Positions 24,943 through 55,736 of a stretch of DNA of 64,000 nucleotides are shown piece by piece (positions within the stretch are counted from its first letter, which is position 1; every line of letters begins with the position of its first letter). The position numbers were made by a program, and so were the translations under genes. The stretch is from NCBI GenBank assembly GCA_024137785.1, contig JAHRHZ010000065.1, positions 24,604,911 to 24,668,910 on the forward strand, read 5' to 3'. The DNA is from Ginglymostoma cirratum. Taxonomy: Eukaryota. Below the pieces are notes generated by a model. It was not told the origin of the DNA, did not search any database, and saw nothing but the letters and a program-made list of their open reading frames with translations.

Positions 24943-26018
24943 ATCAGAGATAATAGGAACTGCAGATGCTGGAGAATCTGAGATAACAAGGTGTGGAGCT
25001 GGATGAACACAGCAGGCCAAGCAGCATCATAGAAGCAGGAAAGCTTGACATTTCGGGCCGAGACCCTTCATCAGAAATGGGGGAGGGGAAGAGGGTTCTG
25101 AAATAAATAGGGAGAGAGGGGGAGGCGGATAGAGGATGGATAGAGGAGAGGATAGGTGGAGAGGAGACAGACAAGTCAAAGAGGCGGGGATGGAGCCAGT
25201 AAAGGTGAGTGTAGGTGGGGAAGTAGGGAGGAGATAGGTCAGTCTAGGGAGGACAGACAGGTCAGGGGGGCGGGATGAGGTTAGTAGGTAGGAGATGGGG
25301 GTGGGGCTTGAGGTGGGAGGAGTGGATAGGTGAGAGGAAGAACAGGTTAGGGAGGCGGGGACGAGCTGGGCTGGTTTTGGGATGCGTTTGGGGGAGGGGA
25401 GATTTTGAAGCTTGTGAAATCCACATTGATACCATTGGGCTGCAGGGTTCCCAGGCTAAATATGAGTTGCTGTTCCTGCAGCCTTCGGGTGGCATCGTTG
25501 TGGCACTGCAGGAGGCCCAGGATGGACATGTCATCTGAGGAATGGGAGGGGGAGTTGAAATGGTTCGCGACTGGGAGGTGCAATTGTATGTTGCGAACCG
25601 AGCGCAGGTGTTCTGCAAAGCGGTCCCCAAGCCTCCGCTTGGTTTCCCCGATGTAGAGGAGGCCACAATGGGTACAGCGGATACAGTATACCACATTGGC
25701 AGATGTGCAGGTGAACATCTGCTTGACGTGGAAAGTCTTCTTGGGGCCTGGGGTGGGGGTGAGGGAGGAGGTGTAGGGGCAGGTGCAGCACTTCCTGCAG
25801 TTGCAGGATTTCACAAGCTTCAAAATCTTCCCTCCCTCAACCGCACCCCAAAACCAGCCCAGCTCAATCCGCCTTCCCCTCTCTCCCTATTTATTTCAGA
25901 ACCCTCTTCCCCTCCCCCATTTCTGAAGAAGGGTCTAGGCCCGAAACATCAAGCTTTCCTGCTCCTATGATGCTGCTTGGCCTGCTGTGTTCATCCAGCT
26001 CCACACCTTGTTATCTCT
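24943..26018 (-). mobile_element. Penelope-like element 3' fragment (GIY-YIG) with an inverted pseudo-LTR
   Basis: ORF 25347-25823 contains VVYCIRCTHCGLLYIGETKRRLGDRFAEH. The terminal segment recurs in inverted orientation from about 25807. 16-bp TSD atgctaaatayagtgt (24927-24942 / 26019-26034). Confidence 0.92.
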
Positions 26019-32200: not shown

Positions 32201-32689
32201 AAAAAAATTTGGGGACTTTCTACACACATAATAAGACGAGTCAGCTGCTTTTATTAACGATTTAGAAATCAGAATTCAACAGTCGTTTTAGTTGCTGTGA
32301 GGCAGAAAAAAATTTTCAAGTTAAAAAAAAGCCGCTTAGATTCATAAAATTATTTAAGAGATAATGCATAGATTTTCAATGATAATCTACAGCCATCAGT
32401 AAAGATAACAATACTGCTGTTAACACAACGGTAACTCTTCTTTTAAAATTGAGTCCTCTTGGAGAACTTAAGACTTCCAGTTTCGAAGCTGCAAAAAGAA
32501 AGATTAAGCTGGTATGAAAACAGTAGACACTTATGTAAGTTCATCTATAAATCAATGCACAATAAACAAGTTCTAGAGATAAATCACCAGGCAGTGATTA
32601 CCTTGCATCAGAAGACATCATTAAAAGCACTTCAATTTTTAATGATTCATCCTTTCTCCTTAGCAAAAAATAGTTACTACAGGATCAAT

Positions 32690-34972: not shown

Positions 34973-35125
34973 TTCTTTTACAGTGCTTGGTAATTCCATG
35001 TATCCCAGTGGATTCCGCTTCTTGTAGGCAGCGTAGAAGAAACTACAAGCTTCTTCTCCCTTATTCACCAATCCATTTAGCAGGTCAGTAACCCGAAGAT
35101 GCAAGTCATGGCCATCATTTAAAAA
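34973..35125 (-). CDS. CARD19: CARD19-like exon B2 (second half of CARD2)
   Basis: ctttttactccatag|153 nt|gtaatc. Encodes FLNDGHDLHLRVTDLLNGLVNKGEEACSFFYAAYKKRNPLGYMELPSTVKE. Shares the R-x3-LL-x2-L, KGEE-x-C-x2-F and LPS motifs with B1. Confidence 0.88.
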
Positions 35126-37104
35126 CTATGGAGTAAAAAGATTTCATGACGACAATCATATGGAATATCAGGAAAATGTGCATTAACTCATCCGAATAAA
35201 ACTTTTTAACTCTGCAAAATATATTCTTTGCTTTACTGACACAAAACAATGTTAAACGTACAAAGTAAAAAGTCATTAGTGCTTGATTCGTGCCTTTCGC
35301 CTCCTGAAAACAAATTGTGTGGGAGGAGATGCAAGTGCAAATTCATCTATTCTTGCTGGATGTATAACGTTTGTTGATATCTCATATTGAGTCACCACCC
35401 AGTCCAGATTCCACTGAACAATGAGCTAGGTCAAAAAGAAATACATCTTACTGTTCACGCGTACGGCATGTGTTTCACAGAACACTTCTGTAAATTGGTT
35501 CTTAATTCACATAAGCCACAAAAAAACACAAAAGCATCCAATCATGCCTTCATCCTGATAAAGATGCTGGTCATTACCTTTTGTACCATCATACAGTCAT
35601 ACAGCACGGAAACAGACCCTTTGGTCCAACCAATCCTTGCCGAACATACAGTAATCCCAAACTAAACTAGGCCTATGTTGTTCTCAAGTATTTCATTTTT
35701 ATTTCCCCCCCAGTGGCTATGAAATGAGAGGCATGATGTTTGTTTAGTGAACAGGCCAAGCATTTTCACAAAGATCCTAACTAAACACAAAGGTCTTTGT
35801 TCAATCAGAAAAGGACATATGATTTTGTTAATCCAATGCAATGACTTACTCACTTAACTGCCATGGTAGGTCTGCCATATCTAATATAAACTAGTGTGGC
35901 CCTGTTGGCATTTTACCGACCAAGTGCACTTTGCTTTAACCAAACCGTGTAACAAACTGTAGTGCAGAAAAACATTGGTTAACAGTATGGGTTTTTTTTG
36001 GACAATCTTGTCTATACTAAAAAGAAGTTCAAAAGCAGCAAAACACCAATTGGCCTGTGTTAAGTACACATGAAACCGAACTTTTTCTGTGGTCAGAAAG
36101 GTGTTCACGGGAAAATTCTTGGAAATATGGATGCACAGTTGGAAAGAAAAAGAAATAGTCCAGGAGTTTATAAACAGGAAAACCTTATTTATCATTTTAC
36201 ATTACTCTAAGGATGGAAATATTAGCACTCATAATATTTGGATACTTGTAAATAAACTTTCCCAGTGGATCAGCTAGTTTATCCTGTGCAAACATAAGTC
36301 ATTCAACTGAGAAAATTCCAAATTTATGCCCAATTTGTACTGAGTTAACAGATCTTAACTTTGCACTGTAGATTAGTCCATGCACGCTCAATGTGATCAA
36401 TGGCACGTTCTTGGGATTTTGGAAAGTGGGAGAGATACATTAGAGAAATGTTGGACTACAGAATAATGGAATCTGAGAGAACTGGAGTATTATGATCATT
36501 AACAGTAGTAGGAGTTAGAACTGGTGAGATGAGCAGGTACTGCAGAATCTGAGGCCTGGCAATTTTTCTGATCCATGTGCCACAAGGGAATTCCTTCATT
36601 AATTCCTTACCTGCAATCCACTCTCCCAAGTTATACAAGAATGCTTTTTCAAGTTTCTCAATTTGACAGTCAGAGGCTCCTGGGTCAAGTCAACACGGAG
36701 GTAGATGGTAATCATGAAAGCTTCCCAGATTCCTACTACAGTTTGTAATTCCAGAAATCTCAAAGAATATTGAAAACATTTCTTGCCACCCGCACCACCC
36801 ATTCGGCACTCCCAGGCCACTAGCAATTCCTTTTTCTTTCATCTGGAACTTGTACATGACAATGCTTGGACAGTGTCCACACCATGATCATTTCGTCCAA
36901 CAGTTATTTCCACCTACAGTACATGGAATTGGGCAGCAATTTTTCATTCTGTCTACCTTTGATCCAATGAGAACATAACTGGAATTGACTATAAAATCTA
37001 GTCATCATAGTCCACTTGTATTTGGTCTATGCTTTAGTTAAAAGATGCAATACTCCTAGCCTTAATGTTGAGCAAGCTGTTGATGTCAATTCACCCATTT
37101 AAGG

Positions 37105-37397
37105 GGTGGCATGGTGGCTCAGTGGTTAGCACTGCTGCTTCACAGAGCCAGGGCTGGGTTCAATTCCACCCTCGGCCAACTGTCTGTGTGGAGTTTGCAC
37201 ATTCTCTCCATCTCTGCGTGGGTTTCTTCCTGGTGCTCCGGTTTCCTCCCACAGTCCAAAGATGTGCAGTGTATTTGGGTCGGCCATGCTAAATTGCCTG
37301 TATTGTTCAGGGATGTGTAGATTAGGTGGGTTATAGGGGGATGGGTCAGGGTGGGATGCTCTGAGGGTCGGTGTGGACTTGTTGGGATTCTATGATT
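37105..37397 (+). mobile_element. HE1-like V-SINE
   Basis: tggctcagtggttagcactgctg, ggttcaattcc, ctccggtttcctcccacagtccaaagatgtgc. Confidence 0.88.
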
Positions 37398-37681
37398 TTA
37401 TAAAGACATATATGGCTCTTTTCAGGCTGAGCTGCTTTTTAAAAGTGCTTACTTTACCGTAGTTCAGTTCCTGGCTCATAACCCGTGCAAGACAATTTGC
37501 CCTACATTGAGTATTGTGCGAGAGCACACAGAGATGGGTAACTGGATTACTGAGCAAGGAAGAGGAAATGAAAGTGTAATGTTACTCCCATTACGAACAC
37601 TGTATCTCCTTACCTTCTGTGACCAGTAACACAGGAAATACACTAGTCAAAAAAGACCATTAGTTAAGTAAAGTTCTGTAC

Positions 37682-37813
37682 TTTCTCAGCCTCTGATCTA
37701 TTAAGTACTGGTGGGTTGTGGTTTCGAAGTTCATTTATCACTTGAAGCAAGTTTTCCTCACTGAGATGCCTATCATTAGTAAAGTGTAAATGATCTTCTT
37801 TTAACTTTTTTTT
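37682..37813 (-). CDS. CARD19: CARD19-like exon A2 (first half of CARD2)
   Basis: tctgtag|132 nt|gtacag. Encodes KKKLKEDHLHFTNDRHLSEENLLQVINELRNHNPPVLNRSEAEK. 21/44 identical to exon A1 and ends in EAEK, like the recalled human exon. Confidence 0.85.
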
Positions 37814-38170
37814 CTACAGATGTCGAAATAAAGGACAATGAGTTACATGGAGCAATGTAACATCACAAAATGTTACCATCCAAAGATATTTAATTTGACA
37901 TTTCAAGTTGAGGAGACCCAGAGGGGAACAGTGTTACATTCATAGTCTTTAGTATGTACATTTTTTAAATGTCTGAACAGACGTCTTCCCAAGCACTGTA
38001 GGGCATAACCATGAAGTGTCATTAATGAATTCATATCCTTAATATTTTCTGTTTCTCTCTTGAAAATATTTGATTAACACATTTCATAGCAAATTAACAC
38101 ATTTTACTTGTCAACACAGAGTGATTATTAATCATGAAATATGGCCATTGCACATGCTCAAATGCAGCCA

Positions 38171-39333
38171 GTGATGTCATTGGGTACTCCATAGTTAGGG
38201 GGACAGATAGGAGATTCTGTGGGAACGAGAGAGGCTCGCGGTTGGTGTGTTGCCTCCCAGGTGCCAGGGTCCGTGATGTCTCAGATCGTGTTTTTGGGAT
38301 CCTTAAGGGGGAGGGGGAGCAGCCCCAAGTCGTGGTCCACATAGACACCAACGACTTAGATAGGAAAAGGGATGGGGATGTAAGGCAGAAATTCAAGGAG
38401 CTAGGGTGGAAGCTTAGAGCTAGAACAAGCAAAGTTGTTATCTCTGGTTTGTTACCCGTGTCACATGCTAGCGAAGCGAGGAATAGGGAGAGAGAGCAGT
38501 TGAACACGTGGCGACAGGGATGGTGCAGGAGGGAGGGATTCAGATACCTGGATATTTGGGGCTCATTCTGGGGTAGGTGGGACTACAAACAGGATGGTCT
38601 ACACCTGAACCAGAGGGGTACCAATATCCTGGGTGGGAAATTTGCTAATGCTTTTCAGGAGGGTTTAAACTAATTCAGCAGTGGGGTGGGAACCTGAATT
38701 GTAGCTCCAGTGAACAGGAGGTTGAGAGTAGTGAGGTCATGAATAAGGTTTCAAGGTCGCAGGAGTGTACCGGCAGGCAGGAAGGTGGTTTGAAGTGTGT
38801 CTACTTCAACACCAGGAGCATCTGGAATAAGGTGGGTGAACTTGCAGCATGGGTTGGTACCTGGGACTTTGATGTTGTGGCCATTTTGGAGACATGGATA
38901 GAGCAGGGACAGGAATGGTTGTTGCAGGTTCTGGGGTTTAGATGTTTCAGTAAGATCAGGGAAGGTGGTAAAAGAGGGGGAGGTGTGGCATTGTTAGTCA
39001 AGGACAGTATTACGGTGGCAAAAAGGACGTTTGATGAGGACTTGTCTACTGAGGTAGTATGGGCTGAGGTTAGAAACAGGAAAGGAGAGGTCACCCTGTT
39101 GGGAGTTTTCTACAGGCCTCCAAAAAGTTCCAGAGATGTAAAGGAAAGGATTGCAAAGCTGATTCTGGATAGAAGCGAAAGTAACAGGGTAGTTGTTATG
39201 GGGGACTTTAACTTTGCAAATATTGACTGGAAACGCTATAGTTCGAGTACTTTAGACGGGTCAGTTTTTGTCCAACGTGTGCAGGAGGGTTTCCTGACAC
39301 AGTATGTAGATAGGCCAACAAGAGGCGAGGCAA
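38171..39333 (+). mobile_element. CR1 LINE 5' fragment: ORF1 SGNH esterase + ORF2 APE endonuclease
   Basis: VIGYSIVRG..CCLPGARVRD..HIDTND..DGLHLN (esterase), then VYFNTRSI..ETW..GGGVAL..YRPP..MGDFN (APE). Both frames are open. Confidence 0.9.
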
Positions 39334-39944
39334 CAGCCATCATCTCACTGAATGGCAGAACAGGCTCAATGGGCCGAATGGCCTACTCCTGCTCCTACAT
39401 CTTATGGACATGGCAAAATGACTTGGAATTTCTTGAAACAGCATCACCAGTAAGTTAAACCAAACTTCATAACAGTTTTTACATCTAACTTGCTAGCTGG
39501 ATCCTCAGTTAAAACTTTCTATCACTCTCATTAACATACACCAGAATTTAAAACTCAGTGGAATCTCTTGTGGTTTGAAGGAAAGCATACGACTTACTGT
39601 ATCCTCCTTCTTTAAATCCATCTTTACGTATTAAAATTAAATTTTGTAGCTGTCAAACAGTGCCTTATGAACATTAAGCAAAGCATATTTAAGAAATCTA
39701 ATTATGGAAGCTCTACACTTTTACATAATATTTTCATAAATATGAGAAGATACAAAAAAGTAGACAGCAAGTCCGAGTGACAAAAAACCAACAATTTAAA
39801 CAAAAAAAAAGACTATAAAGCACAAAAAAATGTGACTGCATTTGGTCTCACTGCACCTAATATTTTGAGTATAAATTTAAATTTAGAACTTGTATAAGTG
39901 CAGGAAACACTTATTCGCTTGTCCTCTGCAGGAAGAAGGCCTAC

Positions 39945-39996
39945 ATCGATGCATGGTTTTTAAATTGTTGGCAGAGGAATCACTGCATAAAAGGTT
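39945..39996 (-). CDS. Candidate linker or alternative first coding exon D1
   Basis: Strong acceptor cttgtcttccacag, 52 nt, donor gtaggc. Phase 0 to 1, NLLCSDSSANNLKTMHR. Contains an accATG near its 3' end. Confidence 0.35.
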
Positions 39997-40275
39997 CTGT
40001 GGAAGACAAGTCATAACAAATTATTTAACTGTGAAGTTATTGCACTTGTTGCACTGAAAATCAGTATTAAGCCACTGTTCCAATGCATGCTTTGTGGAAA
40101 TACCAATTATGAATTGATGCTACAGACTGAAAAGCCTATGAGAGACAATGCAGTCTAATATATACTTTTAAACACAATTGACAAAGCAAAGGACTAATCA
40201 GTGTGATTGTTGGAAATGCACAGAAATTGTGTCAAACTACCATGAAGTTACAAACTCCCAAACAAAAGCACAGAC

Positions 40276-40358
40276 TCTAGTATCTTCTTTATGCAGAGCT
40301 TGACATTTCTCTTCAATCTTTGTTGAGTTTTGCTTATTGGCATAATTAAATTCATTAC
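40276..40358 (-). CDS. Candidate linker exon C1 after CARD1
   Basis: Acceptor tcattgcag follows a 145-nt intron. The phase-1 frame is open (GNEFNYANKQNSTKIEEKCQALHKEDTR). Donor uncertain: gtctgt at 40275 or gtaact at 40251, both phase 0. Confidence 0.5.
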
Positions 40359-40503
40359 CTGCAATGACATTGAATGAGCAGTAAATATTTTATCTTTAAT
40401 CCTCACAATTTTCAAATATAATTGATAACAACACACAATAAATCACAGCCACCTAGAGTGTGTTAAAAATAAATTGTTTCTTATTTGCGATTAAGAGATT
40501 TAC

Positions 40504-40657
40504 CTGTCTTTCTTTGGCTTGGAAGCTGTTCGTACAGATATGAATCATACAGTTTCAATACTGTACAGAAAAGATTACAGCTTTCTTCACCTTTTCGTCA
40601 CAATAAATCAAGAAGTGTGGCTGCACGACTGTGTCTTTCCATTTTAGGGTTTTGTAA
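40504..40657 (-). CDS. CARD19: CARD19-like exon B1 (second half of CARD1), contains an in-frame TGA
   Basis: ttttaacag|154 nt|gtaaat, phase 0 to 1. Encodes LQNPKMERHSRAATLLDLL*RKGEESCNLFCTVLKLYDSYLYEQLPSQRKT versus human FRNPKASLRVRLCDLLSHLQRSGERDCQEFYRALYIHAQPLHSRLPSRHAL (17/51, recalled). Confidence 0.85.
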
Positions 40658-40946
40658 CTGTTAAAATCCAATGGAAACTTTACAGATTATTTATCAATAG
40701 GGTGTAAAAAAGAAGTGGGTAGTTCAGAACTAGAGCATTGCTGCAAATATCATATTTTGTTGAAGTTTTTTGTCATACGCTTATCAAGGCAAATGACAAG
40801 AATATACCGACAAAGCAGAAATATTCACACTGTATAAGAGAAGAGTGGTGGTCAGATGGCAAGTGGATACAGGCATTGCCATGGAGCATGCAGCAGTTAA
40901 TGTTTCCAGGGTTTGTGTAGATTTCAAACCAAACTCTGATTGATCA

Positions 40947-41165
40947 AAGATAAAACAGTGTGGACCTGGAAGAACACAGCAGGCCAGGTAGCATCAGAGG
41001 AAAACAAAAGTTGACGTTTCAGGTTAGGACCCTCCTTCAAAAAAAAAATTTCTGAAGGGTCTCATGTTAACTTTCCTGCTCCTCTGATCCCGCCTGGCCT
41101 GCTGCGCTCCTCCAACTCCACACTGTGTTATCTCAAACTCCAGCATCTGGAGTTCCTACTATTTC
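40947..41165. mobile_element. Short Penelope-derived inverted-repeat element (diverged)
   Basis: Head-to-head copies of the Penelope terminal sequence, with imperfect flanking direct repeats tctgat..atcaaag. Confidence 0.7.
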
Positions 41166-42399
41166 TGATCAATCAAAGCAGTGCCCTGAAAGATTAGCCA
41201 GCAAATGGTACCTATTCAGTTAAGTTGAAACAGTGCCACGCATGTATATGTTCTTTTTGTTTGTAAAGAACGGGGCCCTTTTATATACTATAAAAGCTAG
41301 TATATGTAGCTTTTATTACGTGCAAGTGAGAGCCTGACTGACATGCGTAATTTGATTGTCCTTGTAACTTATTGTACATTCAGGATTATTCAGCAAACGT
41401 TGTTCAGTTGCAGAATCACACCTAACATTAGGCACTGTATTGTGAGATTTGCAAGTGTAGGCTGATTTCGTATTGTTGGTACTAGCTTGTTGAGAATAGC
41501 CAAAGGGAAATGCTGTTTGATATGATCCGCTGTCTTTGGGACATACAGTCTACACACCGGCACAGAAATTCACAAGCCACTTTACTCATTTGTAATAGGC
41601 AGAATGTCCTTTTGGTTTGACAGCAGCATCCTATTAGTGGTGAATACCACTTGTGTTACTGCTGTGCAGTAGCAGCATGAAACGGTTGCTGAAACTTTTG
41701 AGATACCTCACCCTTCTAAAATCTCTGACAGGATGGGCACTTTTCAGGACCAACAGTGGCCATGCAAGGGCATTTGGTGAATTTGTGTGATACACAGGGA
41801 GAAATTATCTGAACAGCGAAGTCCCCATCCTGAAGGATGGTCTTGGTGTGCCCTCTTCAGCATCAACCTTGCATGGTGACCAAATGCCTTGAAATCAGGT
41901 TCTTTCACAAGTAGAGAATTGAGCGTATGCAAATTTTCCCCTTCATTTATAATCCGCGGGGAGAAATTTTACATAAACTGGTTGCTTAGATTCCATTCTA
42001 CAAAGGAGACGTGACACACACTGCTGTTAAATAATAAGTGTAATGTAATTTTGCTTTTTAAATGTTAGCTGGATTAGCCTAAATTGAGTCATAGAATCAT
42101 ACAGCATGGAAACAGACCCTTTGGTCCAACCAAAGTGCTGGCTAATATATTGAGTCGTATAATATATTGAGTCGGATTTCATATAATGAAGAAATATCAC
42201 AGTATTTCTGTGTAAATACTCATCAAAATAATTTATTAAATTTTCAATAATTTAGTTGTCATGCAGACAGAGCTAGGTGTGACAATGAATACACAAATAA
42301 AATCAGACACACAGCTGGACTCCATTGGGTCCCTGCAAGGTTACAGCACAGGAGATAACAACTTGTGAAATAGCACTCAACTTTAACTATCTAAAACAA

Positions 42400-43080
42400 T
42401 ATCTGCATCAGTAGTACTGGCGTGGAGATGGTCGAGAGTGTCATGTTTCTGGGAGTAATGATCACCAACAATCTGTCCTGGTCCACCGACGCCAACGTGA
42501 TGGTCAAGAAAGCACAGCAACGCCTCTGCTTCCTCAGGAAGCTAAGGAAATTCGGCATGCCCACAAAGATTCTTACCAATTTTTATAGGTGTACCATAGA
42601 AAGCATCCTATGCAGATATATCACAGCTGGGCTCAGCAACTGTTCTGCCCAAGACTGCAAGAAACAATAGAGGGTCATGAACACAGTCCAATCCATTAAG
42701 CAAACCAGCCTTCCATCCACTGACTACACCTATACTTCCCACTGCCTCAGGAAAGGAACCAACATAATTAAAGACCCTCCCACCCCGGTTATACTATCTT
42801 CCACCTTCTTCCATCAGACAGAAGATATAAAAGTTTGAATACAAGTACGAACAGATTCAAGAACAGCTTCTGCCCCGCTGTTATCAGACTTTTGAATGGA
42901 CCTCTCAAATGCTAATTTTGATCGCTCTCTCTGCACCTTCTGCACGGTTGTAACACTGTATTCTGCACTCTGTTCTGCTATCCTGATGCACTTTGCATGG
43001 TGCGATCTGCCTCTGTAGTACACAAAACAATCCTTTTCACTGTTTCTCTGTACATGTAACAACAATAAATCAAACTCAAA
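42400..43080 (+). mobile_element. Rex1/Babar LINE 3' fragment
   Basis: VESVMFLGVMITNNLSW..KKAQQRLCFLRKLRKF..LTNFYRCTIESIL; tail caataaatcaa. Confidence 0.85.
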
Positions 43081-43250
43081 ATAATAAATGTTATTTTAGT
43101 ATATTTTAGTTCAATAAGTTTAATTTAATAATTCACCTGCAGTATAAGTTTTTGGTAGAGATTATATTCACCCATGCATATAGTGCAACTATAAAAAAAA
43201 TGAAAAATACTACGAGATGGGCTAAACAATATAAAATTGTTGTATCTTAC

Positions 43251-43393
43251 CCTGTTGTATTCTCCACTGTTCAAAACAGGAGGCTCTGTTTTTGTCAAAT
43301 AAATAATAACCTGATTTAACAAAGTTTCATAGAGATCTCCCTCATTTGTAAAATACAGTCTGTCATTCTTCAGAGCATCTTTGCAGCTCTTTC
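43251..43393 (-). CDS. CARD19: CARD19-like exon A1 (first half of CARD1)
   Basis: tttttgttgcag|143 nt|gtaag, phase 1 to 0. Encodes KSCKDALKNDRLYFTNEGDLYETLLNQVIIYLTKTEPPVLNSGEYNR, ungapped against human QTYCDRLVQDTPFLTGHGRLSEQQVDRIILQLNRYYPQILTNKEAEK (12/47 identical, recalled). Confidence 0.88.
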
Positions 43394-47225: not shown

Positions 47226-47754
47226 GTATAAATAGTTGAGACTCAGCATCGATCCCTGTGGAACTTCACAGCACACGTAGTGCATCCAAATTTCCAAGAG
47301 ACATTTAACAGACATAAAGATTACTAGAGTCACAGAGTCATATTACAGAAGAAAAGACCCCATTTTGTTAGGGGTGATACATTACCATGGGAAGAGCATT
47401 CACTAATTAACAGGAAACAGAATCAGGGTTATGGTTTGGCATTCTCATCCACCGAGGGGTTATTGACTGCATTCGAGACTGAATAATTTCGATTTCAATT
47501 TGATCGATATGGGAGTTAATTGTTCTGGGGGACAGGTAAGAAAGTGGAATTAAGATCACAATCAAATGGTCCCAATGGCCCACCTTCTATTTCTTATGAT
47601 TTCAGGGTTGCTGTTGCCTTTAGACACTCTGGCTGGGTTTTGCTGCTGTATTGATGTATCATGTATGTCAGTGCTGTGTTTCTCAAGTGCAGGTTATATG
47701 ACACATGGTATCCTTTCAGAACATGAGTTACTCCCGTTCTACCTAAATACTCAC

Positions 47755-47809
47755 GATTTTGGTATAACCCAGAGAAACAGGACGTTTGATGATGCGACAG
47801 ATTGTACGC
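47755..47809 (-). CDS. Candidate 55-nt upstream exon of the CARD19-like gene
   Basis: ttgttgcag|55 nt|gtgagt, phase 0 to 1, AYNLSHHQTSCFSGLYQN. Could also be 5'UTR. Confidence 0.4.
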
Positions 47810-48479
47810 CTGCAACAACTAGAATCCTAGTCACGTTTAATATGCTACAAGCATCAAATTAGCAGCATAAATACATTTTCTAATCTTTTATCATGCATCC
47901 GTTTTAAACGTGCTACTTAGTTTAAATCGGACCAATACTCTGCCCTTTTACCGCCATGTACAGATAAATGACATAACTCTTACCTTCTATTAGTTTCACA
48001 GCCTCTCGTAAATTTCTGCTACTTCGGCTTTTCGCTTTAGCTGTCAGACCGTCCAGACAGTGCTCACAAACCAATCTCCTTGTTGGGGTCAGACCCGGAA
48101 AACACGGACATCGGCTCAGATTTACAACATTTTTCACCGACAGAGAATTCTCTCTTGCGCCACCAATTGAGGAATTGCAAAGGGTTCTTTTTATTTAAAC
48201 ATTATGCGCAGAAAATCTCTTGAGGCTCATCCTATTTATTAGAATTCATGTCAAATATTTACGTAAATTATTTCTCAACATTTTAATTTAGCTCCAGGTA
48301 AATTTTGAAAATGCTCAGGAGGTCAAACGGGATATTAAAAGCGCCTAAACTGGGTATTACAACTGCCAAACGACCCAATAGGCGAGGTCCGTGTTGTGAA
48401 ATGTTAAGCCATCCACACCAATGTAGTTTCCTGCTTCAGGGGTCTCACTGCCAGTATTCGGATCAGACACAAGACTCAC

Positions 48480-53289: not shown

Positions 53290-53639
53290 CAAAGGATAAA
53301 TAATCTGCTGGTAAGTGTAAAACAAAATTAAAAACCTACACCAATTAAAGGGTTATAAAATGTTGACCTGCTTGCCTGAGAATTCAATCACGCTAGCCCT
53401 AAGTAGTGCTATGGCGCACCTACCTCTTGTATGAAGCCTCAGCCAGGAACAGATTCTGTTTATGTGAGGGTATTCTGCAAATCAGCATTCCCAGAAACAT
53501 CAGCAGTCTGTTTCAGAGATCCAATATTCTCTGGGAAAACAATATCTTACCTAGTTTTAGCTTTGAATAACTTGTGATCCTTAGTCCTAACATATTTAGT
53601 TAAACTATTGTTTGCTAAAACAGCTTGGAATATGTTTGA

Positions 53640-55665
53640 GACAGGAGATAAGTGGAGATGAGTTTGGTGGGGCAGGAGCAGGTGGGGACAATGGGTCGAC
53701 CAGGGCAGTCAGGTTCGTGGATTTTGCGAAGGAGGTAGAAGTGGGCCATGCGGGGTTGGGGAATGATGAGGTTGGAGGCTGTGGGTGGGAGGTCACCCGA
53801 GGTGATGAGGTTGTAGATGGTTTGGGAGATGATGTTTTGGTGGTCAGGGTTGGGGTCGAACTCATCTCCACTTATCTCGACTCCATTTTCTCCCCTTTGG
53901 TCCAGGAACACCCAATCTACGTCCGTGACACCACCCACGCCCTCCACCTCCTCCAAAACTTCCAATTCCCTGGTCCCTAACACCTGATCTTTACCATGGA
54001 CATCCAGTCCCTATATACTTGCATTTCCAATGCAGATGGCCTAAAGGCCCTCCGCTTCTTCCTGTCCCACAGGCCCGACCAGTCCCCCTCCAATGACACC
54101 CTCATCTGCTTAGCTGAACTCGTCCTCACCCTCAGCAACTTCTCCTTCAATTCCTCCCACTTCCTACAGGCAAAGGGGTGGCCATGGGTACCCACACGGG
54201 CCCAAGTTATGCCTGCCTCTTTGTAGGATACGTGGAACAATCCCTCTTCCAAAGCTACACTGGCCCTATCCCCCACCTCTTCCTCCGCGACATTGATAAC
54301 TGTATCAGCGCCACCTTGTGCTCCCACGAGGAGCTCTAACAGTTCGTCCACTTCACTAACACCTTCCAGCCCAACCTTAAGTTCACCTGGACCATCTCCG
54401 ATACCTCTCTCTCCTTCCTGGACCTCTGTATTTCCATCTCTGGCAACCACCTGGAAACCGATATCCATTTCAAGCCTACCAACTCCCACAGCTACCTAGA
54501 ATACACCTCCTCTCACCCACCTTGCTGCAAAAAGGCCATCCCCTATTCCCAATTCCTTCGCCTCCGCCGCATCTGCTCCCGAGATGAGGCATTCCACTCC
54601 TGGACATCCCAGATGTCCTCATTTTTCAAGGACCGCAACTTCCCCTCCACAGTGGTTGAAAACACCCTCGACCGTGTCTCTCACATTTCCCACAGCTCCT
54701 CACCCTTATCTGCTTTCCGGAGGAACCACTCTCTCCATGACTCCCTTGTCCAGTCCACACTCCCCACCAGCCTCACCACACCCGGTATTTTTCCCTGCAA
54801 CCACAGGAAGTGCTACACCTGCCCCTACACCTGCCCGCTCACACTCATCCCAGGCCTAAGAAGACTTTCCAAATCAAACAGATGTTCACCTGCACATCTG
54901 CTAATGTGGTATACTGTATCCGCTGTTCCCATTGTGGCCTTCTCTACATCGGGGAAACCAAACGGAGGCTTGGGGACCACTTTGTGGAACACCTACACTC
55001 AGTTCGCACCAAACAACTGCACCTCCCAGTCACGAACCATTTCAACTTCCCCTCCCACTCCTTGGACAACATGTCCATCCTGGGTCTCCTGCAGTGCCTC
55101 AACAATGCCACCCGAAGGTTGCAGGAACAGCATCTCATATTTCGCTGGGGAATCCTGCAGCCCGATGGTATCAATGTGGACTTCACAAGCTTCAAAATCT
55201 CCCCTCCCCCGACCACATCCCAAAACCAGCCCAGCTCATACCCGCCTCCCTATCCTCCCTCCCTATCCTACCTGTCCTCCCACCTATCCACTCCTCCCAC
55301 CTCAAGCCCCACCCCCATCTCCTACCTACCAGCCTCATCCTTCCTCCTTGACCTGTCAATCCTCCCTGGACCAACCTAGCCCCTCCCTACCTCCCCACCT
55401 ACACTCACCTTTACTGGCTCCAACCCCACCTCCTTGACCTGTGTCTCCTCCCCACCTATCTTCTCCTTTATCCATCTTCTATCCGCCTCCCTCTTTCTCC
55501 CTATTTATTTCAGAATCCCCTTCCCCTCCCCCATTTCTGAAGAAGGGTCTCGACCTGAAATGTCAGCTTTCCTGCTCCTCTGATGCTGCTTGGCCTGCCG
55601 TGTTCATCCAGCTCTACACCTTGTTGTCTCAGATTCTCCAGCATCGGCAGTTCCTACTATCTCTG
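53640..55665 (+). mobile_element. Penelope-like (Neptune-type) retroelement, 5'-truncated with a 5' inversion; frameshifted RT + GIY-YIG
   Basis: RT motifs FTMDIQSLYT, AMGT and a degenerate YIDD. Cys linker CNHRKCYTC; VVYCIRC..LYIGETKRRL. 15-bp TSD ttggaatatgtttga (53625-53639 / 55666-55680). Confidence 0.92.
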
Positions 55666-55736
55666 TTGGAATATGTTTGATTAGGTCTGAAATTATCCAA
55701 TTAAGTCAATTGCTTTCTGCCTAAATTTGATTTTGA

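Follow-up and report, generated by a model that had tools for sequence, protein, structure and literature searches.

Does the shark Ginglymostoma cirratum possess a working member of the CARD19 family with two CARDs in place of one, and what would such a protein do? The question is raised by a pair of CARD modules on the minus strand (34973-43393) of a 64,000-nucleotide stretch of its genome, hereafter the window (assembly GCA_024137785.1, contig JAHRHZ010000065.1, positions 24,604,911 to 24,668,910; plain coordinates below are window positions). An earlier note had described them as a hidden, lineage-specific gene for tandem CARDs of the CARD19/BinCARD type. In our reading, to which we assign a probability of about 0.78, the locus is likely a dead copy of an old gene that arose from CARD19 by tandem duplication, encodes two CARDs and lacks a membrane anchor; its intact form would most likely be a soluble CARD-only decoy.

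Exons and disabling changes

The four minus-strand exons described previously were borne out at the same coordinates, with the lengths given for them, and a phase-0 intron lies inside each CARD. CARD1 is encoded by exon A1 (43393-43251, 143 nt), which is open and corresponds to orthologue residues 3-50, and by exon B1 (40657-40504, 154 nt). CARD2 is encoded by exon A2 (37823-37682, or 37813-37682 and 132 nt when opened by a cryptic TAG acceptor) and by exon B2 (35125-34973, 153 nt), which is open and shares 86-92% identity with its orthologues. A linker exon, C1 (40358-40284, 75 nt), lies between the modules. At the coordinates first described, A1, B1, A2 and B2 have AG/GT ends. When its stop codon is replaced by X, B1 matches the Pfam CARD family with an expectation value (E) of 3.7e-8. 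The two CARDs are identical at 38 of 92 aligned residues, which agrees with the similarity counted before (38/95), and at 61/129 and 70/153 nucleotides. Comparison of the two intra-CARD introns yielded one 45-bp match, read as the end of a common repeat, and four chance-level matches, so that the impression of no obvious intron similarity also stands.

The claim that A1-B1-C1-A2-B2 splices in frame did not hold. An in-frame TGA at 40600-40598 occupies codon 20 of B1, equivalent to Ser70 of the orthologues, where two related species, here called B and C, read TCA, and it is retained in all four splice routes tried. The TGA is found in sequencing runs from the same organism: 42 of 42 sampled words are present in run X1, and a run from another study (X3) covers 40417-40604 with a sole difference at 40566 and the TGA unchanged. 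The X3 contig, of depth 4.2, spans intron and exon and therefore provides no evidence on splicing; the polyA run X21 has no reads over 40130-40720, which bears neither way on transcription. The C1 donor (40283-40282) reads AT in place of the GT present in B and C. The frame across the linker is kept only when a 107-nt C1, using a weak cryptic donor, is combined with the cryptic A2 acceptor, and the TGA in B1 is then still present. The expected A2 acceptor before 37823 reads CG, and the length of A2 exceeds by 2 nt the 140 nt implied by the orthologue proteins, from which we infer that the acceptor has been lost with a +2 shift.

The start codon has probably been lost as well (ATG to ATA), since the orthologues begin with M-E-G while the 3' end of the candidate first exon (47990-47984, minus strand) reads ATA GAA G ahead of a GTAAGA donor. 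This donor is the strongest one in a CpG-rich stretch (47750-48400; CpG observed/expected ~1.0), and no in-frame ATG lies upstream of it. Judged from its sequence, the copy is unable to make the twin-CARD protein because of the B1 stop and the splice lesions. The disabling changes are found where orthologue models are intact, as in a unitary pseudogene, and searches of the animal's own genome, in which 8/8 and 10/10 candidates were scored, recovered at least one copy of this gene. In our view the G. cirratum locus belongs to an old twin-CARD19 family of chondrichthyans and is likely a pseudogene, the copy in the window being likely non-functional.

Intact orthologues in sharks and a chimaera

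Complete proteins with both CARDs, of about 227 aa (range 221-247 aa), are modelled in Heterodontus (XP_067907844), Heptranchias (XP_067854826), Cetorhinus (LOC144681671), Carcharodon (LOC121280474), Pristiophorus, Scyliorhinus torazame and the chimaera Callorhinchus (LOC103185066); a partial model from Mustelus lacks A1. A search with B2 gave seven protein clusters among nine candidates, all from sharks. Within sharks, orthologues share 67-92% identity per CARD exon, and C1, which encodes a linker of 25 residues, is left out of some isoforms. The presence of joined models in sharks and a chimaera implies that the modules form one gene that is older than the shark/chimaera split, an event placed more than 400 million years ago. 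The earlier note had left two tandem genes as an option; the models from eight species, which join the modules, speak for a single gene, and the Callorhinchus orthologue bears out the suspicion that the duplication is old. The proposed lineage specificity falls in so far as the gene is chondrichthyan-wide, occurring in sharks and a chimaera, and not confined to a narrow lineage. No twin-CARD protein was found in rays or skates by searches that were word-limited or clustered at 50%, so that absence does not follow. The gene is not hidden either, as automatic models already exist in other sharks, labelled just "uncharacterized" or "CARD19-like".

The orthologue models stop a few residues after CARD2, and CARD is their only Pfam match. 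The highest hydropathy over 19 residues is below 1.0 in 16 of 17 twin-CARD models, as against values of 2.17 (shark) and 1.88 for CARD19, and no hydrophobic tail is present in the shared form of 221-232 aa. For an intact orthologue two six-helix bundles are predicted, the structure suggested for checking beforehand; they are connected by a linker of 25-28 residues with a predicted local distance difference test (pLDDT) score below 50, the predicted template modelling (pTM) score of the whole being 0.49. CARD1 has a net basic or neutral charge, and CARD2 is mostly acidic.

Relationship to CARD19

In a profile search against Protein Data Bank (PDB) sequences BinCARD was the sole match at E<=0.01 (4.5e-13). 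A profile built from 21 single-CARD proteins scored twin CARDs at 44-78 bits (58 and 60 for those in the window) versus 19-25 bits for four other CARDs. The Heptranchias model superimposes on BinCARD with a Foldseek TM(target) of 0.92 and a root mean square deviation (rmsd) of 1.3, and for orthologue CARD2 a Z score of 18.3 was obtained (rmsd 1.1, 95 residues aligned), the next family reaching 15.2. Profile scores and predicted fold thus confirm that these are CARDs of the CARD19 type.

A separate CARD19 gene with an anchor exon is present upstream, which establishes that the twin-CARD gene is distinct from the true CARD19. It has the same orientation as the twin gene and is located outside the window, 24-35 kb upstream of A1 (L011-L012, G000:C65:24672343-24682952, minus strand), encodes a single CARD, is apparently intact and has the same exon phases, with CARD exons of 137 and 154 nt. 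It groups with vertebrate CARD19 (tree support 99/97-98), and its CARD is identical at 86-87 of 93 residues to that of bamboo and epaulette sharks and at 80/93 to that of Carcharodon, which makes a position of the genome among the carpet sharks likely. Further 5' exons of CARD19 were noticed ~23-30 kb upstream. NINJ1 is encoded on the opposite strand, and its coding exons (L034, G000:C65:24598086-24603920, plus strand) end ~1 kb short of the left edge of the window; Card19 and Ninj1 are also adjacent in mouse (PMC8547626). Its position between CARD19 and NINJ1 therefore marks the twin gene as a tandem paralogue of CARD19. On sequence grounds, it is an anchor-less tandem paralogue and not CARD19 itself.

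With CARD19/BinCARD (C9orf89; PDB 4dwn, 4fh0) the twin gene shares CARD sequence and fold, the two-exon CARD with its phase-0 intron and 154-nt second exon, and a locus beside NINJ1. It differs in that it adjoins the true CARD19 as a paralogue with two CARDs, no transmembrane tail and ~31% identity; intact twin-CARD orthologues keep 10-12 of 18 CARD19-invariant residues, and the G. cirratum copy is broken. The tandem CARDs of RIG-I/MDA5 and NOD2 are alike in that two CARDs occur per chain, but they belong to an unrelated CARD subfamily (14-17% identity to the twin CARDs), and the twin gene has a long optional linker and neither a helicase nor a NACHT(-LRR) region after its CARDs.

Lesions and neutral change in related species

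In species C, codon 5 of B1 is TAA, and species B has a GC donor after B1 together with changes at an invariant G and an invariant E. The B and C comparison used 29/33 and 21/22 of the differences. Among G. cirratum, B and C, exons B1 and C1 have accumulated 13 nonsynonymous changes (2 of them nonsense) and 3 synonymous ones, giving an omega (nonsynonymous to synonymous rate ratio) of ~1.1; a ratio of 13:3 has P=0.003 under an omega of 0.2. The exons have changed at 16/229 positions, the intron at 19/310. Exon change at the pace of the intron and an omega near 1.1 therefore indicate that B1 and C1 evolve neutrally among the three species.

In G. cirratum, invariant sites have changed at 13/64 positions in CARD1 versus 5/70 in CARD2 (p=0.04), so CARD1 was probably relaxed first. 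The terminal branch of the G. cirratum CARD1 measures 0.25-0.27 versus 0.04-0.11 for the others. In Chiloscyllium plagiosum a CARD19 isoform model (P0098) runs on into exon A1, which carries a 3-residue deletion and a frameshift there. No carpet-shark twin-CARD protein was among the matches of our protein searches, though carpet-shark CARD19 is present in the same collection. Probably the two-exon CARD cassette of CARD19 was duplicated before the shark/chimaera split and function was lost in an ancestor of carpet sharks, CARD1 and the linker being relaxed first.

Weighing the explanations

It is very improbable that the gene still functions in G. cirratum and that the stop reflects a mistake in the assembly, an uncommon allele, readthrough or recoding. 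In favour of this reading, no exon is missing, most junctions have AG/GT ends, and along one cryptic route the frame is broken by nothing but the stop; against it, the TGA occurs in two runs (X1, X3), the second lesion at the C1 donor is confirmed by comparison with relatives, these relatives carry different stops, and the substitution pattern is neutral. Selenocysteine recoding was considered and rejected, since the TGA replaces a codon for Ser, not Cys, in the relatives. It is somewhat less far-fetched, though still unlikely, that CARD1 is dead and that splicing to the cryptic A2 acceptor still yields a CARD2-only protein with an internal start. Both CARD2 exons have open frames, the 5/70 changes in CARD2 are within the range of intact orthologues, and in theory an ATG at 40243-40241, directly followed by a weak donor, could be joined in frame to that acceptor. 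However, this donor lies behind upstream stops, no in-frame Met occurs between the B1 stop and late B2, the neutral rate since the three-species split (13/539 sites) alone predicts ~4 such changes, and no short carpet-shark protein is among seven matches of at least 91 aa. Two separate single-CARD genes in tandem, which the repetition of the CARD19 two-exon cassette in each module might suggest, are the least credible option: in the models from eight species the modules are linked, either through C1 or directly, and a separate start or terminal exon was found for neither module.

As to what the intact protein does, we tentatively favour a soluble decoy that would damp CARD-CARD signalling, at rather less than even odds, because it consists only of CARDs, has no anchor or effector domain, was born beside its parent and is prone to loss like CARD16/17/18. 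CARD19 has been reported to depend on a transmembrane segment for mitochondrial targeting and, in some of its interactions, on a folded CARD (PMC8997538), and an anchor-less copy could therefore titrate the same partners. By analogy, the intact protein would bind a CARD, either that of CARD19 itself or that of one of its partners, and would cap its assembly or compete with it. CARD16/17/18 (COP1, INCA, ICEBERG) inhibit assembly of the neighbouring caspase-1 (PMC11383037, PMC6365033) and resemble the twin gene as CARD-only tandem duplicates beside their parent with repeated pseudogenisation (PMC11383037). They differ in being young, caspase-1-derived and equipped with one CARD, whereas the twin gene is CARD19-derived, has two CARDs and predates the shark/chimaera split; twin CARDs show 19-24% identity to the caspase-1 CARD versus 32-38% to BinCARD. 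The main rival to the decoy, possible but distinctly less probable, is that the protein serves as an activating adaptor and seeds CARD filaments, as the tandem CARDs of RIG-I/MDA5 do on MAVS. Tandem CARDs are described as nucleating MAVS filaments (PMC6365033), two twin-CARD paralogues are retained in sharks and a chimaera, and a basic or neutral CARD1 is paired with a mostly acidic CARD2. Against such a role speak a linker of low pLDDT that some isoforms skip, the lack of a sensor domain as a switch and the poor fit of the whole model to the RIG-I/MDA5 2CARD (rmsd 12-14 Å), although the inter-domain geometry is unreliable at this pTM.

Several points weigh against a dead copy of a decoy gene. 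The state of the copy was read from genomic DNA, and the orthologue proteins are automatic models. In the shallow X3 contig the TGA is separated from the contig end by 5-7 bases, X1 may be the assembly's own read source, and the A2 shift, located in an A-run, could be an assembly error. The lesions in B and C come from one contig each, and a GC donor may be functional. The test for neutral change comprises 16 changes in CARD1 and the linker only, and the divergence of CARD2 is no greater than in intact orthologues. One Heterodontus isoform (P0009) possesses a hydrophobic tail (hydropathy 2.09). At ~31% identity to CARD19 CARDs the twin CARDs may have another binding partner, and the one proposed here is drawn from analogy.

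A second twin-CARD paralogue

A profile search (65 matches, 20 named) revealed a second twin-CARD paralogue with models in seven chondrichthyans including Callorhinchus. In G. cirratum it is located at G000:C4:22182727-22192928 (plus strand, L029-L033) and is likely dead too, both CARD2 exons containing TGA codons as read from the assembly alone. In a reduced tree each of the four CARD groups, CARD1 and CARD2 of either paralogue, forms one clade. The best trees, from which 16 of 48 rows were left out, join CARD2 of both paralogues (92/85), and separate internal duplications obtained approximately unbiased test values (p-AU) of 0.17 and 0.24; the tandem may have arisen once or twice, both being compatible with the trees. 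Two domains were found in 7/65 matches, five of which are chondrichthyan twin-CARD genes (the profile included them). Of the rest, a Myotis model in which half a CARD is repeated is likely an artefact, and a catfish tandem CARD scores like unrelated CARDs. A search of a protein atlas gave only CARD look-alikes, all below 0.9.

Literature searches on CARD19 in sharks, its paralogues and evolution, chondrichthyan tandem CARDs and the locus identifiers found no description, though subscription papers or supplements may list these genes; the main text of the whale-shark genome paper contains neither CARD19 nor BinCARD. The chondrichthyan twin-CARD19 family is apparently undescribed. The function of CARD19 is still disputed (PMC8997538, PMC8547626), and a paralogue in which sharks and a chimaera keep this CARD without the mitochondrial anchor offers a route to the partners that CARDs of this type bind. 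That a single lineage has lost both twin-CARD paralogues is a hint that the two share one pathway, and a warning that the innate-immune genes of chondrichthyans are under-represented in the genomes of carpet sharks. More speculatively, and with odds well short of even, the two genes could form a family of soluble tandem-CARD19 proteins that is peculiar to cartilaginous fishes, older than the shark/chimaera split and, beside the CARD19-NINJ1 locus, a module dedicated to the control of mitochondrial CARD signalling. Carpet sharks, which are the sharks mainly used in the laboratory, would then have lost both genes together and be natural knockouts for the entire module.

Further observations

The twin gene reaches past 34973-43393: its candidate first exon ends at 47984, and a candidate last coding exon (32488-32468, minus strand), placed by similarity to the orthologue end, reads LRNWKS-stop versus LQN. 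AATAAA-type signals follow, the first at 32255. No tblastn match was obtained with the alternative first exons of Cetorhinus and Carcharodon. An alternative frame of the last exon (32380-32488, minus strand) encodes a short hydrophobic tail that is used by no orthologue model; it may be due to chance or a relic of an anchor, and as a real anchor it was rejected and treated as chance.

Besides CARD19 and the twin genes, an unrelated single-exon CARD with a 103-aa open frame was found (L010, G000:C54:22306569-22306811), and two more Ninjurin loci lie on C21 and C222. A Pristiophorus model (P0111) fuses the second paralogue to a PRY-SPRY domain and its CARDs are slightly unlike those of P0108; a further copy or read-through is possible, and no PRY-SPRY match occurs in 50 kb around the second paralogue of G. 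cirratum. A protein of Aix galericulata named TMEM40 isoform X1 (P0084) has a divergent CARD19-like domain at 22-112 and may be a distant paralogue or a fused model. Decayed retroelement fragments, recognized by eye as endonuclease, reverse-transcriptase and GIY-YIG-like, are scattered through the window (38100-39450, 42380-42900, 25000-26000 and 53600-55700), and such pieces are typical content of shark introns.

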